64,000 bases of DNA, taken from positions 1,888,001 to 1,952,000 of the forward strand of contig OY970355.1 of NCBI GenBank assembly GCA_963718525.1, read 5' to 3'. Positions 49,280-56,242 of the stretch are shown here, one piece after another; position 1 is the first letter of the stretch; every line of letters begins with the position of its first letter. Origin of the DNA: Candidatus Dormiibacterota bacterium. GTDB lineage: Bacteria; Chloroflexota; Dormibacteria; Aeolococcales; Aeolococcaceae. The position numbers and the translations under genes are program-made. The notes beneath the pieces are model-generated. The model made no database searches and was not told the origin of the DNA. It worked only from the letters and a program-made list of their open reading frames with translations.

Positions 49280-50344
49280 TCAGGCGACGTGGAGGGGCTC
49301 GCGCGACGGCGGCGTGGGCGCACCCACCACGTCAAGTCCCGGATTGTCGCCGGTCACGCTGTCCTCACTCTCCTCGGAGGCGGCGCCATCCCGGTTGCGG
49401 CGGAAGAGCAGCGTGCTCCCGAGGCCGGCAACCGGCAGCGATACCGCGAGGTCGATCGCCTGGAGGGTCAGCCCCGCCCCTACGGCGAGCGAGCCGGGAA
49501 CGCCCTCGAGGAGCAGCGCTCCCGCCCACCATGCCTGGCCGGTGCCGATTCCCGCGATCCCCTGGATGGGGATGGTGAGCAGCAGCGTCCGGATGGAGAG
49601 GACGAACCATGTCTGCCAGAAGCCGAGATGCAACCCGACCATGCTCATCAATGCGGCGTACTGGATCACGGTGGCGATCCTGCAAAAGAGGGTGCTGCCG
49701 ATCAGGTTCGCCCAGCGTGCCCGGCTGTTGAGCACGTCGAGCTCGGCCTCGGCCCGGGCGGCCAGCCCGGCGAGCCGGGGAATCCGCGCCGCCACTCGCG
49801 TCACCAGGGTCCGGGGTCCCGGGATGATCAGCGAGAGCAGGACGCCGAGACCGACCACGAAGGCGGCGGCTGCCGCAAAGATGACGGCCGGATGCACGTG
49901 ATTCGCCGTGAAGAAGGAGGCGATGACCGCGATCGCCGAGAGGCTGACGACGTCGAGGATGCGGGCAACGATCGCGCTCCCTGATCCCCGGGCCACCCCG
50001 ACGCCAAACCGTGTCCTGGCCAGGGCGACGAACGTGACGTCGGCGGAAGGGCCTGGGAGCAGGAGGCCCGCTCCCCACGATGCGGCGGTGGCGCCGAGCA
50101 ACTCGCGTCCGCTGCCTTTCCGCCTCGGGAGGAGTGCTGCGAACCGCCACGCCCGGCCGATGAGAAAGCAGGCAGCACCGAATGCGGCGAGCGCGATCGA
50201 CCCTGCGTTTGGATTGATGCCCTGCCAGCTGAGGTGGTTCCCGCCGAACAGGCGCCAAACGAGGAGAAGGACCACGACGGTGACGACGCTGGTGACCGCC
50301 GCCCGAAGCAGGAGTGCACGGCGAGACGAACCCGAGATCGACAC
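49280..50344 (-). CDS. Flippase-like membrane protein (LPG-synthase TM region / UPF0104 family)
   Basis: About eight TM segments, RAWRF, LLP.PSAD, ARILD and [10 protein letters not shown]. Start uncertain. Confidence 0.72.
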
Positions 50345-50547
50345 GAGAGTTGATTGTCGCTCTTTTGTCCGCGCCCGGTCGATCGATTGACCAATTCGAA
50401 TACGCCTGTTCCGCCGCTTTCCCGCCGGCAATGAGCGTCTCGCGTGGCCAATGGACGGATCGTGTAGGCATAATCCAGTCCATAACCCCTTCGAAAGCTC
50501 TTCTTCGCGAAGGTCGCAGGGTCCCAACATTCCCAGGAGCTTCTTGC

Positions 50548-51774
50548 ATGCGCAACAGAACGGTGATCGTGCTCGGGGCGGACGGCTATCTCGGCTGGCC
50601 GCAGGCGATGCACCTGTCCGGCCAGGGCTACCGCGTCATCGCGGTGGACAACCTCGTTCGCCGTCGCTGGGATCTCGAGTGCGGCACGTCGTCGCTCATC
50701 CCGATCTCAACGATGGAGCGTCGGGTCGAACGATGGCGTGAGCTGGGCAAGGGCAACATCGAGTGGCGTCTGGTCGACCTCACCGATGCCGACGCTACCA
50801 CCGATCTGATCGCCTCCACGCAGCCCGACGCGGTGGTCCATTTCGCGGAGCAGCGCTCGGCGCCCTTCTCGATGATCGACCGCGAGCACGCGGTCATGAC
50901 CCAGCTCAACAACGTCGCGGGCACGCTCAACCTGCTCTTCGCACTGCACGAGCATGCCCCCGAGTGCCACCTGGTGAAGCTGGGCACGATGGGCGAGTAC
51001 GGCACACCGAACATCGACATCGAGGAAGGCTTCATCACCATCGAGCACAACGGCAGGAGCGACACCCTGCCGTACCCGAAGCTTCCCGGGAGCTTCTACC
51101 ACCTCTCCAAGGTGCACGACAGCCACAACATCCATTTCGTGTGCCGCGCCTGGGGCATCGCCGCGACCGACCTTAACCAGGGCGTCGTCTACGGCTGCAC
51201 CACACCGGAGACCACATTGCACCCCGAGCTCGCCACGAGGTTCGACTACGACGGGATCTGGGGCACCGTGCTCAACCGGTTCATCGTCCAGTCGGCGATC
51301 GGCAAGCCACTCACCGTGTACGGCAGTGGGGGGCAGACGCGCGGCTTCCTCGATATCCGCGACACCATGGCGTGCGTTCAGCTGAGCATCGACCACCCCG
51401 CGAAACCCGGCGAATTCCGCGTCTTCAACCAATTCACCGAGCAGTTCTCGGTGCTCCAGCTCGCTGAGCTCGTGCGCGATGCGCGTGCGGCTCACGGTGG
51501 TGAGACCACCATCGACCACACCCCGAATCCCCGCTTCGAGAAGGACACGCACTTCTACAACGCCAAACACCAGTTGCTCGTGGACCTCGGGCTCGAGGCG
51601 CACAAGCTTCGGAGCACGCTGATCAACTCGGTCATCGCGACCGTGGAACAGCACATCGACCGCGTTGACATGTCGCAGGTCGGTGTCTCCGACGTCGAAT
51701 GGACGACCGGCCGCTCCCGCGCGGCCACGGGCAAGGCGCGAGTCGCGGCTCCCGCAGCGGAGACGGTGGCGTAG
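50548..51774 (+). CDS. sqdB: UDP-sulfoquinovose synthase (SqdB/SQD1/Agl3 family)
   Basis: Family-diagnostic [62 protein letters not shown] and FNQFTE. Confidence 0.93.
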
Positions 51775-54061: not shown

Positions 54062-55297
54062 ACCCCATGACTTCCGCGGCTCGCTCGCCCTGGTATCGCG
54101 CCGACCGGGTGCTGCTCGGCGCAGCGCTCGCGATCTTCGTCGGGTTCGCGATCGCCTACACACGCATCACGCCGGTGGGTGCCTCGCCCGACGAGCTGTC
54201 CCACCTCCACTACATCAACGGCATCGCCGATCACCTCCGGCTGCCGCCGGCGGGTGAGCCGGAGCGCCAGCAGCCCCCCCTCTACTACCTCCTGGGAGCA
54301 ATCGTCGCGAAGCTCACCGGCGATGACCCGCGCCTGATCCGGTTGGTCTCCGTGGTTCTCGGCGTGCTGACCATCCTCACGGTCTACGCGGTAGGGCGCC
54401 GTCTCTTTCCGCTCAGGCCCGCGCTCGCGGTCGGGGCTGCCGCACTGGTGGCGCTGCTCCCCGAGGCCCAGTACCTCGCCGGGGCGATCAATGACGACAA
54501 CCTCGCGTGGCTCGCGGGTGCGCTCCTCGTGCTGGCGGGCGTCGTCGTGATGCAGAGCACGCAGCTGACCCCGCGCCTCGCCCTCGGGGTTGGGCTCGCA
54601 GTCGCGCTCGCGGTGCTCGCCAAGGAAACCGTCTGGGTCCTGGCGGCACTGCTCCTGCTCGTTGTCGTCGTGCGTTTCGCCCGCCAGCTGCGTGCTGTCC
54701 ATGTGACAGCCCTGGTCCTGCCCGCGATCGTGCTGGCGGGATGGTGGTTCGTGCGCAACGCAGTGGAATTCGGCAGCCCGCTCCCGCCGCTGCACCCGAT
54801 CACCGCGCAGCGTCAGGTGTTCGAACTCGTTCGCCCAGGTGCGCGGCTACATCGCCGCGACGGCCGTGAGCCTGGTGGGCATGTACGGCAACGGGGCGCA
54901 CCTGGTGGCGATCTCGATCCTCGGGATCCGGCCACTGCCGAGCACGCTCGCCATCGCCGTCATCGCGGTCGTCGCCCTGGCGGCATGCGTCGCGGTGGCA
55001 CGCTCCTGGGCGCGATGGGACACGACGCGCCGGGGCGTCGCGATCGTGCTGCTCGCCGTGCTCATGGTGGCGGCAGCGCAGTCGTTGCTGAACTCGGCCA
55101 CGTTCGATCTCCAGCCGCAGGCCCGCTATCTCCTCGTGGCCGTGGCAGCCGCCGCGCCGATCACGGCCTGGACGATCGCCTGGCGCCGGGCCGGCCCGCT
55201 CTCCCAGGCGCGAGGCGCGGCGATCGCTCTCCTCGTGGCCGTGGCGCTGGTGCTCGATGTCTCCGGCCTCATGACCGCCGCCCACGCGGCTGCGTGA
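54058..55297 (+). CDS. Second GT-C-like polytopic membrane protein, apparent +1 frameshift near 54824
   Basis: PDE..H..Y, QPPLYY, RLVS, INDD, LAK, WWFVRN and QARYL. Frames join at GAACTC 54823. Confidence 0.72.
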
Positions 55298-56242
55298 TCA
55301 GCGAACCTGTTCGCGAAAGCTCTCGAGTGTCCGCGTCAGGCCCTCGTCGAGGCTGACGGTGGGGCTCCATCCCAGGCGCTCGGCGGCGAGCGAGTTGTCC
55401 AGTGCGCTGCGAGTCACCTCGCCAGGTGGGAGGGGCTCGCGCTCGGGTTGGCCGGGATAGCCCGCGAGCGTGCAGAGGCGGCCGACGAGATCGCCGATCG
55501 CCGTCTCGCGCCCGGTGCCGATGTTGATCGCACCGGTGACCTTCGAGGTCAGGCCGAGCACGTTCGCAGCCACGATATCGCCGACGTAGATGAAGTCACG
55601 TGTCTGGGTTCCATCGCCCCGAATCACCGGCCCCTTGCCGTCGAGCACCCTGTGGCTGGAGATCGCCACCACACCGGCTTCGCCGGTGCCGTCCTGCCCC
55701 GGACCGTAGACATTGCCGTAACGGAGCGCCAGCGCGTCGATCGCGCCGGCGCGCGTGAAGTGACCAAGGTAGTACTCGATGCTGAGCTTCGCCGTGCCGT
55801 AGGGTGAACGCGGCAGCGCCGGCTCGTCCTCCGGGGTCGGCAGGCGACGTGATGCGCCGTACAGAGCTCCGCCCGACGATGCGACGACGACCCGCCGGCA
55901 TCCGGACGCCATCGCGGCCGCGAGCACGCTCACGGTGCCGAGCACGTTGATGTGTGCATCGGCCGCGGGTTCGCGCCAGGACCTGTTGACGCCGCCCTGC
56001 GCCGCGAGATGGAGGATCGCCGCCGGCTGCCACGCTTGGATGGCAGCGCGTGCCTCCGGCTCGGCGACGTCCACGGGCTCGAGCATTGCGGCGGCGGGCA
56101 ACGGCCGGTACGAGGCATGGCGCAGGTCGTCGATGACCAGCACATCCGCACCGGCGCCGAGCAACGCTTCGACACTGTGAACGCCGATAAAACCGGCGCC
56201 GCCGGTGACGACGAGGCGCTGGCCGGACATCTCCAATGCCAT
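55298..56242 (-). CDS. NAD-dependent nucleotide-sugar epimerase/dehydratase (GalE-like)
   Basis: TGGAGFIG, HLAAQ, SSGGALYG, YGTAK, RYGNVYGP and RDFIYV. Confidence 0.9.
   Translation of the reverse strand: MALEMSGQRLVVTGGAGFIGVHSVEALLGAGADVLVIDDLRHASYRPLPAAAMLEPVDVAEPEARAAIQAWQPAAILHLAAQGGVNRSWREPAADAHINVLGTVSVLAAAMASGCRRVVVASSGGALYGASRRLPTPEDEPALPRSPYGTAKLSIEYYLGHFTRAGAIDALALRYGNVYGPGQDGTGEAGVVAISSHRVLDGKGPVIRGDGTQTRDFIYVGDIVAANVLGLTSKVTGAINIGTGRETAIGDLVGRLCTLAGYPGQPEREPLPPGEVTRSALDNSLAAERLGWSPTVSLDEGLTRTLESFREQVR

Follow-up and report, generated by a model that had tools for sequence, protein, structure and literature searches.

The sulfosugar sulfoquinovose (SQ) is thought to enter ecosystems almost wholly as the photosynthetic sulfolipid sulfoquinovosyl diacylglycerol (SQDG), and the only other documented use of such a sugar that we know of is in related N-glycans of Archaea. 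Here we describe a six-gene cluster in an uncultured soil bacterium, Candidatus Dormiibacterota, which points to an undescribed sulfonated surface decoration and not to a plant-type sulfolipid. The cluster lies at positions 49280–56242 of the window, the 64,000-nucleotide (nt) stretch analysed here (positions 1888001–1952000 of the single-contig genome OY970355.1; 3.34 Mb, 68% G+C). It brings together sqdB, a gene for uridine diphosphate (UDP)-sulfoquinovose synthase, with genes for a family 2 glycosyltransferase (GT2), two membrane glycosyltransferases of the GT-C fold class (GT-C1 and GT-C2), a flippase-like protein and a GalE-like epimerase. We estimate a probability of roughly 60% that, as this gene content suggests, the cluster encodes a lipid-carrier-dependent extracytoplasmic glycosylation system of the three-component type for a 6-sulfo-6-deoxy-hexose. 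Gene identities, folds, operon structure, intactness, the sulfolipid synthases not found, linkage, co-occurrence and fusion were all computed in this work. The six genes were confirmed at the coordinates of a preliminary description of this DNA and are listed below with the intergenic region.

49280–50332, minus strand: LPG_synthase_TM (MprF flippase-domain-like) membrane protein of about 350 residues, a candidate flippase; 5′ end approximate
50333–50547, no strand assigned: divergent intergenic region of about 215 bp, with a sigma-70-like site at 50445–50474 (plus strand) and AGGAG ahead of the sqdB ATG
50548–51774, plus strand: sqdB, UDP-sulfoquinovose synthase, 408 residues; ATG at 50548; matches to SQD1 in the PDB and to NF041015
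51780–52523, plus strand: GT2 of the polyprenyl-phosphate sugar synthase type (ArnC/DPMS/GtrB/PpgS-like), 247 residues; GTG at 51780; PF00535
52524–54061, plus strand: GT-C1, PMT_2/ArnT-like GT-C transferase, intact form 511 residues; GTG at 52524; PMT_2 match and fold
54067–55297, plus strand: GT-C2, PMT_2/DUF2142-like GT-C transferase, intact form 409 residues; ATG at 54067; PMT_2 match and fold
55298–56242, minus strand: GalE-like short-chain 4-epimerase paralog, 314 residues; ATG at 56242; match to PDB 4zrm

An sqdB operon with carrier-type glycosyltransferases

The four plus-strand genes are spaced by 6 nt (sqdB stop to GT2 start), 0 nt (GT2 to GT-C1) and 5 nt (GT-C1 to GT-C2), and therefore form one translationally coupled operon. 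Its first product matches Arabidopsis SQD1 (1qrr/1i24) over 381 residues (6–386) with E = 8.9e-153 in a PDB search, a full-length match that bears out the earlier naming of a UDP-sulfoquinovose synthase. The KLGTMGEYG and YHLSK stretches of SQD1 are identical in SqdB in a pairwise alignment; in short-chain dehydrogenases/reductases, Thr, the Tyr-x-x-x-Lys motif and an adjacent His have catalytic roles. The Pfam match is Epimerase, and the gene is single copy in the genome. The NCBIfam model NF041015 scores SqdB at 462.9 bits (E = 8e-139), under its equivalog cut-off of 575, and the next-best NCBIfam family reaches 39 bits, so that SqdB is a diverged member of this family and not a member of another. 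SqdB is predicted to make UDP-sulfoquinovose (UDP-SQ) from UDP-glucose and sulfite, the latter plausibly supplied through two genes of the phosphoadenosine phosphosulfate (PAPS)-reductase family found in the genome.

In the nearest public loci (L001–L006, Dormibacterota/Dormibacteria metagenome-assembled genomes, MAGs; L numbers denote public loci throughout) SqdB is 90–96% identical, and identity falls to 57–61% for the SqdB of SqdX-linked cyanobacterial and Chloroflexota loci. An SqdB tree was built from the window and 79 of the 80 sqdB loci fetched (L076 was filtered out). It places the Dormibacteria rows (n = 30, including the window) on one side of a branch with support 99; its label 'GT2-adjacent' includes L031, L032 and L048, three loci with a GT2 of the EpsE/TuaG rather than the carrier type. 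The tree puts two rows named 'uncultured Klebsiella sp.' (L029 and L039) with Chloroflexota and Planctomycetota, and their records look mislabelled or mis-binned.

The second product of the operon had been described as a GT2 like dolichyl-phosphate mannose synthase (DPMS), and all seven of its best solved relatives are indeed polyprenyl-phosphate glycosyltransferases: ArnC (three sources, E = 4e-21 to 1e-18), Pyrococcus DPMS (one) and Synechocystis GtrB (three). The ArnC structures align to residues 6–211 (E = 4e-21). Glycos_transf_2 (PF00535) is matched with E = 3.3e-23, and among NCBIfam models ArnC is best (2.3e-22), with further matches to PpgS (E = 9.5e-11), AglJ and a haloarchaeal dolichyl-phosphate hexose transferase. 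Residues D45-D46 and the D98-x-D100 (DXD) motif are invariant in 9 of 9 aligned rows. The protein is without the C-terminal transmembrane helices of ArnC, GtrB and archaeal DPMS (a Kyte–Doolittle profile gives no hydrophobic segment), and in this it resembles PpgS and Ppm1 D2, members that likewise have none. It may associate with the membrane through GT-C1, to which it is fused in some relatives: 12 of the 120 listed GT-C1 relatives are GT2 + PMT_2 fusions of 750–810 residues (P0081 and P0102 among them). Such fusions set the cytoplasmic synthase on the N terminus of the GT-C enzyme that would use its product.

A second carrier-type GT2 in the genome, 36% identical to the sqdB-linked one, lies at genome positions 189000–200000 beside a 676-residue protein mannosyltransferase (PMT; PF02366/PF16192), a PIG-V-like GT-C protein and a 740-residue membrane protein that has no Pfam match. 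This second cluster is probably a polyprenyl-phosphate-mannose system, and because that separate GT2 sits with the PMT and PIG-V-like genes, the sqdB-linked GT2 can be regarded as a specialised paralog and not as a general mannose-carrier enzyme. From its homology and its GT-C partners, the sqdB-linked GT2 would use polyprenyl phosphate as acceptor.

GT-C1 and GT-C2 both match PMT_2 above the Pfam cut-off (E = 5.3e-9 and 1.6e-12, respectively; GT-C2 also matches DUF2142). With the GT2 and flippase-like matches, all three families proposed earlier for checking with hidden Markov models (PMT_2, Glycos_transf_2 and LPG_synthase_TM) were found. The intact GT-C1 has about 10–12 transmembrane segments and a C-terminal soluble domain of about 155 residues, whereas the intact GT-C2 is membrane-embedded along its whole length. 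The acidic pair after the first transmembrane segment, already pointed out from the sequence, is invariant as D28-E29 in 31 of 31 GT-C1 rows and as D42-E43 in 11 of 11 GT-C2 rows, and by predicted topology would lie outside the membrane in the first extracytoplasmic loop.

PDB sequence and profile searches gave no usable match for either protein (best Pmt1, E = 0.053), which made a fold search necessary; the ESM Atlas, searched for the GT-C proteins, gave PMT_2/RgtA-like clusters only and no structure model. We therefore modelled the intact forms with AlphaFold 2, at a mean predicted local distance difference test (pLDDT) score of 79.7 and a predicted template modelling score (pTM) of 0.81 for GT-C1, and a pLDDT of 70.5 for GT-C2. 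All 18 Foldseek matches of the GT-C1 model at E ≤ 0.001 are GT-C enzymes, the best being ArnT (5f15; E = 1e-7, TM-score 0.60, sequence identity only 17–18%), with AglB, AftD, STT3 and AftB among the others. All 10 matches of the GT-C2 model at the same threshold are also GT-C enzymes (STT3, AglB, ArnT with TM-score 0.58, and Pmt4); its highest TM-score, 0.62, is to AftB, but at E = 8.7e-3 and rank 18. The two proteins are only distant relatives of each other (hhalign probability 74.5%). Two tail-to-tail GT-C1 paralogs, 37–42% identical and adjoining two S-adenosylmethionine-dependent methyltransferase genes, sit at genome positions 2012200–2015556, some 60 kb past the end of the window.

Intactness of the GT-C genes

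This assembly does contain the frameshifts noticed earlier in the two GT-C genes. They are single extra bases at 53353 and 53795 (GT-C1) and at 54824 (GT-C2), each causing a +1 shift, and were located by comparison with L001–L003, where the genes are single open reading frames (ORFs) of 511 and about 420 codons. Three +1 shifts inside 2.8 kb would suit a decaying cluster in which both GT-C genes have become pseudogenes, an account to which we give next to no chance. Over 52400–55400, Logan contigs from 4 of 4 public runs belonging to 3 studies lack the extra base at all three sites, and one contig of 3538 nt covers 52487–55400 with 1 other letter different; one of the four runs may be the source sample, and the remaining studies are independent of it. 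Near-identical intact proteins are also present in the protein collection (P0005 for GT-C1, 15 members; P0127 for GT-C2, 10 members). Because the extra bases are absent from all four runs and the genes are intact in relatives, the frameshifts are assembly insertions, and the pseudogene reading is ruled out for the natural population.

The sequence context of the insertions points to a consensus error of a systematic kind: each lies in the 8-mer GAACTCGT, which in one case is on the opposite strand. At the 1066 GAACTCG sites of the genome (both strands), phase shifts in third-position G+C content (GC3) number 50 for +1 and 36 for −1, against 34 and 49 for eight control words pooled, suggesting further cases elsewhere in the genome. 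The GC3-phase test was used in place of an ORF-extension test of motif-linked frameshifts, which did not discriminate. The assembly probably holds tens more motif-linked insertion errors, which may explain the genome's completeness score of 88.9%. The four other GAACTCG sites within 40.5–58 kb of the window show no unpaired indel; the blastn indel listing against L001–L006 is noisy at about 80% identity, and only unpaired single-base gaps were counted. Split tblastn matches occur in other MAGs as well, in L005 (8008–8013 and 11080–11082) and L008 (9730–9732), where they concern PyrRedox, sqdB or GalE-like genes; they suggest that frameshift errors are common in assemblies of this group.

Search for known sulfolipid synthases

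The preliminary description had seen no SqdX-type GT4 or SqdD-type GT8 sulfolipid synthase in the window, and neither gene type was found on searching the whole genome. GT8 (PF01501) has 0 matches in the genome, whereas control genomes did match. None of the 13 GT4-like matches in the genome lies within the window, and no SqdX-like GT4 was found among them: the best is 26.7% identical to cyanobacterial SqdX at 97 bits, compared with 348–352 bits for Caldilineaceae SqdX against the same queries, which were the genes beside sqdB in two cyanobacterial loci. With NF053787, the NCBIfam model nearest SqdX and here a proxy for it, the best of the 13 scores 78.7 bits and three SqdX proteins score 160–168. 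SqdX adjoins sqdB in 4 of the 80 fetched loci, and 0 of those 4 are Dormibacteria.

Linkage of sqdB and GT2 across Dormibacteria

We sampled 201 Dormibacteria genomes, our own included, and called GT2 orthologs at E ≤ 1e-40. In this sample sqdB occurs in 107 genomes and GT2 in 111. A total of 103 genomes carry the pair, 4 have sqdB without GT2, 8 have GT2 without sqdB, and 86 lack both. The four sqdB-only genomes are 79–92% complete, and two of these have sqdB at a contig end. All but one of the eight GT2-only hits have 36–39% identity, come from one family without sqdB and resemble the 36% paralog of our genome. Where both genes are present, they are no more than 3.5 kb apart in 75 of the 103 genomes and no more than 200 bp apart in 56. 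The sample includes nine unpublished genomes, all with both genes; without them the four counts are 94, 4, 8 and 86 of 192, with 71 adjacent pairs. The trait varies inside genera: of the 30 genomes of genus g6, 12 carry sqdB, GT2 accompanies it in 10 of these, and the remaining 18 lack both genes.

Synteny of the full cluster extends over L001–L007. Rearranged versions with sqdB, GT2 and the GalE-like gene, and with variable GT-C and flippase-like genes, are found in L008–L010, L012, L020–L023, L026, L027 and L030. In all, 18 of 30 Dormibacteria-type loci carry sqdB and GT2 clustered, with L030 counted despite its archaeal label; this entry ('Micrarchaeaceae archaeon') carries Dormibacteria-type sqdB clusters, and its label looks wrong or mis-binned. 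One Dormibacteria family (L011, L013–L019, L025 and L089) has sqdB in a housekeeping context, between genes for a trypsin-like protease and a Pyr_redox_2 oxidoreductase followed by cobalamin adenosyltransferase and away from the module of GT2, GalE-like gene and GT-C1, and still has the GT2 ortholog in 22 of 23 genomes. In the three split loci of this family that were examined, where sqdB is elsewhere, GT-C1 accompanies GT2: matches to both its N- and C-terminal parts occur in L086 and L087, and only an N-terminal fragment in L088, where the locus ends. Of 50 loci fetched from other classes, two (L068 and L075, both Actinomycetota) pair sqdB with a carrier-type GT2. Relatives thus keep sqdB linked to GT2 and GT-C genes, and sqdB and GT2 co-occur across the class.

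A flippase-like gene beside sqdB

The divergent minus-strand gene described earlier as flippase-like matches LPG_synthase_TM (PF03706) with E = 3.2e-13 and 50.3 bits against a cut-off of 33.4 (ORF 49280–50530, minus strand). Its product has about 8 hydrophobic segments, and the gene is single copy in the genome. Across the class sample it occurs in 52 of the 201 genomes, all 52 of which have sqdB; it lies within 3.5 kb of sqdB in 43 and within 420 bp in 40 of them, and without the unpublished genomes the counts are 49, of which 40 are near sqdB. We regard the protein as the candidate flippase of the system.

This proximity, which makes the flippase-like gene the closest neighbour of sqdB, also suits a different end product, a phosphate-sparing anionic membrane sulfoglycolipid: the GT2 would make polyprenyl-phosphate-SQ or another SQ-lipid, the MprF-like flippase would place it in the outer leaflet, and the GT-C genes would serve another purpose. 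MprF, which we take to be the only characterised relative of the protein, flips a finished lipid, and GT-C2 is missing from many clusters. We nevertheless consider a sulfoglycolipid quite improbable. The GT2–GT-C1 fusions argue against it, as do the four genes in one coupled operon here and the split loci L086–L088, where GT-C1 (in L088 a fragment only) stays with GT2; in addition, the characterised relatives of the GT2 all make carrier-linked donors that are used by GT-C enzymes.

A conserved GalE-like gene and a possible route to sulfofucose

The convergent GalE-like gene is present as first described, with a match to Epimerase at E = 1.6e-51 (ORF 55298–56326, minus strand) and to the UDP-glucose 4-epimerase 4zrm in the PDB at E = 2.4e-70. 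Its stop codon abuts that of GT-C2 (TGATCA), so that the convergent transcripts of the two genes must overlap. The earlier picture of this gene as a mere flank has to be replaced by that of a conserved module member, found in 17 of 18 Dormibacteria-type sqdB + GT2 clusters. The genome's other GalE is 49% identical to it and falls outside all 16 cluster-linked GalE-like proteins, on a long branch, and 17 positions are invariant in the linked proteins and different in this paralog. In the split loci the GalE-like gene is on the GT2 stretch in 3 of 3 cases (adjacent in L086 and L087, about 7 kb off in L088), and it is near 0 of the 10 unlinked sqdB loci of the housekeeping-context family.

Because this dedicated GalE-like gene stays with GT2 where sqdB is elsewhere, the transferred sugar may be the 4-epimer of SQ, sulfofucose (6-deoxy-6-sulfo-D-galactose). 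The GalE-like protein would in that case work between SqdB and GT2 as a UDP-SQ 4-epimerase, leaving the GT2 to load the carrier with sulfofucose, a route that we regard as possible but doubtful. The same pattern fits equally well a neutral galactose or glucose donor. The GT2, GalE-like and GT-C proteins might then form an ordinary polyprenyl-phosphate galactose or glucose side-chain system, for which Gtr and the galactose modification of Klebsiella O2 are models, with sqdB feeding another sulfoquinovosyl transferase or making part of the acceptor. No gene neighbours GT2 more constantly than the GalE-like gene, and three-component systems for glucose and galactose are established, as PMC11127046 describes.

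Several observations nevertheless make a neutral hexose look unlikely. Among the 94 genomes without sqdB, a GT2 of at least 40% identity is found in only 1, which is 90% complete. The translational coupling of sqdB and GT2 here, and their spacing of 200 bp or less in 56 genomes, also count against it. Minimal clusters of the type of L012, L020 and L021 consist of sqdB, the flippase-like gene, the GalE-like gene and GT2, which leaves GT2 as the only glycosyltransferase nearby. Finally, no other SQ transferase of known type was found in the genome, and its second GalE is available for ordinary UDP-galactose supply.

A 2025 paper (PMC12421959) gives sulfofucose as documented only in Fucaceae lipids and a Thermoplasma N-glycan, in two reports. 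According to its authors, no pathway for making this sugar was known, and soil bacteria able to catabolise it may encounter 'yet-unidentified SFuc-containing glycoconjugates'. Among the papers on sulfofucose listed in our own search, no title or abstract concerned its biosynthesis. If the sulfofucose route is right, this cluster would hold the first concrete candidate genes for that biosynthesis; Dormibacteria, common in soil and peat, would bear a sulfofucosylated envelope polymer and be a sulfofucose source for soil eaters with a dedicated pathway, such as Paracoccus wurundjeri.

In the genus, the GalE-like gene ends a minus-strand run in which each gene overlaps the next, from an enoyl-CoA hydratase-like gene (57261–58022) through proline dehydrogenase (56242–57273); in our genome translational coupling ties it to the proline dehydrogenase gene upstream, and it converges on the sqdB operon. 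A scan of the locus gave 1 promoter-like site (0.5 expected) and 3 terminator-like sites (2.2 expected), counts so near chance expectation that we take them as no evidence, and there is no Rfam match over 49000–57500.

Proposed pathway

In the glycosylation system that we favour, SqdB would convert UDP-glucose and sulfite into UDP-SQ, part or all of which the GalE-like protein may turn into UDP-sulfofucose. The GT2, as a peripheral inverting enzyme of the ArnC/PpgS kind, would transfer the sulfosugar to polyprenyl phosphate at the inner face of the membrane; the LPG_synthase_TM protein would carry the anionic lipid-linked sugar to the outer face; and GT-C1 and GT-C2 would pass it to one or two envelope acceptors, whether glycan, lipoglycan or protein. 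The lipid-carrier reading of the preliminary description thus stands as far as the identities, the linkage and the sulfolipid synthases not found are concerned, whereas we infer the use of UDP-SQ by the GT2, the lipid acceptor, the flipping step and the role of the flippase-like protein in it, the final acceptors and the anomeric outcome.

A number of findings weigh against this pathway and enter into our estimate. With regard to the enzymes, SqdB scores under the equivalog cut-off, the sugar specificity of the GT2 is not readable from its sequence, and that protein has none of the membrane helices of its solved relatives. As for gene linkage, sqdB and GT2 are on different contigs in 27 of the 103 genomes that have both and are 676 kb apart in one closed genome, and, the genomes being related, there were fewer independent events than the co-occurrence counts suggest. 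The flippase-like gene is present in only 52 of the 107 sqdB genomes, and its family, PF03706, differs from the GtrA/SMR, MATE and Wzx flippases of characterised three-component systems. The behaviour of the GalE-like gene in split loci suits a neutral donor too, and in a genome 88.9% complete any of the 13 GT4 proteins could be an unrecognised sulfolipid synthase.

Were the pathway correct, its product would be an anionic envelope glycoconjugate of a new class, sulfonated and free of phosphate. It would add a new sugar and a new flippase family to the three-component glycosylation scheme, and would give soil sulfoglycolysis a non-photosynthetic source of sulfosugar in a widespread soil lineage.

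Comparison with known systems

We found no description of a bacterial lipid-carrier route for SQ or sulfofucose, and no literature on SQ in Dormibacterota, among the papers listed from the literature searched, supplements and subscription journals lying outside it. The known systems closest to the cluster each share a part of it. SQDG synthesis (SqdB/SQD1 followed by SqdX/SQD2 or by SqdD/SqdC) has the first enzyme in common with it, but here the neighbours of sqdB are GT2, GT-C and flippase-like genes. In Archaea, Agl3 of Sulfolobus acidocaldarius is said to supply SQ for an N-glycan, and this and the sulfofucose N-glycan of Thermoplasma acidophilum likewise place a 6-sulfo-hexose formed by way of an SqdB-type enzyme on a surface glycoconjugate and not in SQDG. 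In the archaeal route the sulfosugar joins a dolichol-pyrophosphate oligosaccharide in the cytoplasm, and AglB transfers the whole en bloc, whereas here we predict, for a bacterium, a monosaccharide carrier route that has GT-C enzymes of its own.

The Arn pathway provides both the closest solved relative of the GT2 (ArnC) and the closest solved fold to GT-C1 (ArnT). Like the predicted system, it serves one charged sugar and has genes for the sugar-nucleotide enzymes close by. It differs in placing a cationic sugar, 4-amino-4-deoxy-L-arabinose (L-Ara4N), on lipid A where we predict an anionic sulfonate, and in having ArnE/ArnF, of which there are no homologs in this cluster.

The mycobacterial PpgS (Rv3631)/Rv3632/Rv3779 system for galactosamine modification of arabinogalactan resembles our cluster in other respects. 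As described in PMC3485146, PpgS is, like our protein, a GT2 with no transmembrane helices that converts a UDP-sugar into a polyprenyl-phosphate sugar for a GT-C enzyme acting on a wall polymer. The dependence of the synthase on a membrane partner, or its fusion to one as in the two-domain Ppm1 (D1–D2), described in the same source, parallels the GT2 + GT-C1 fusions. The sugar is different, no Rv3632-like small protein was seen in the cluster, and the fusion partner here is the GT-C enzyme itself.

The general scheme that we predict is that of the three-component systems described in PMC11127046, namely GtrA/GtrB/Gtr* of Shigella and Salmonella and, in Citrobacter youngae, a pentofuranose system. 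There, genes for a GT2 synthase, a flippase and a GT-C enzyme occur together and the modification follows export; our cluster has the synthase and GT-C genes and, with them, a flippase candidate. The Citrobacter youngae system likewise has auxiliary epimerases that diversify the sugar. The donor predicted here is instead a sulfonated hexose, and 'sulfo' occurs 0 times in PMC11127046. Our cluster also departs from that scheme in its LPG_synthase_TM-like flippase candidate, its GT2 free of transmembrane helices, its two GT-C proteins and a nucleotide-sugar synthase gene within the operon. The predicted new elements are the sugar, the flippase family, a helix-free GT2 that is fused to a GT-C enzyme in relatives, and the pairing of two GT-C transferases.

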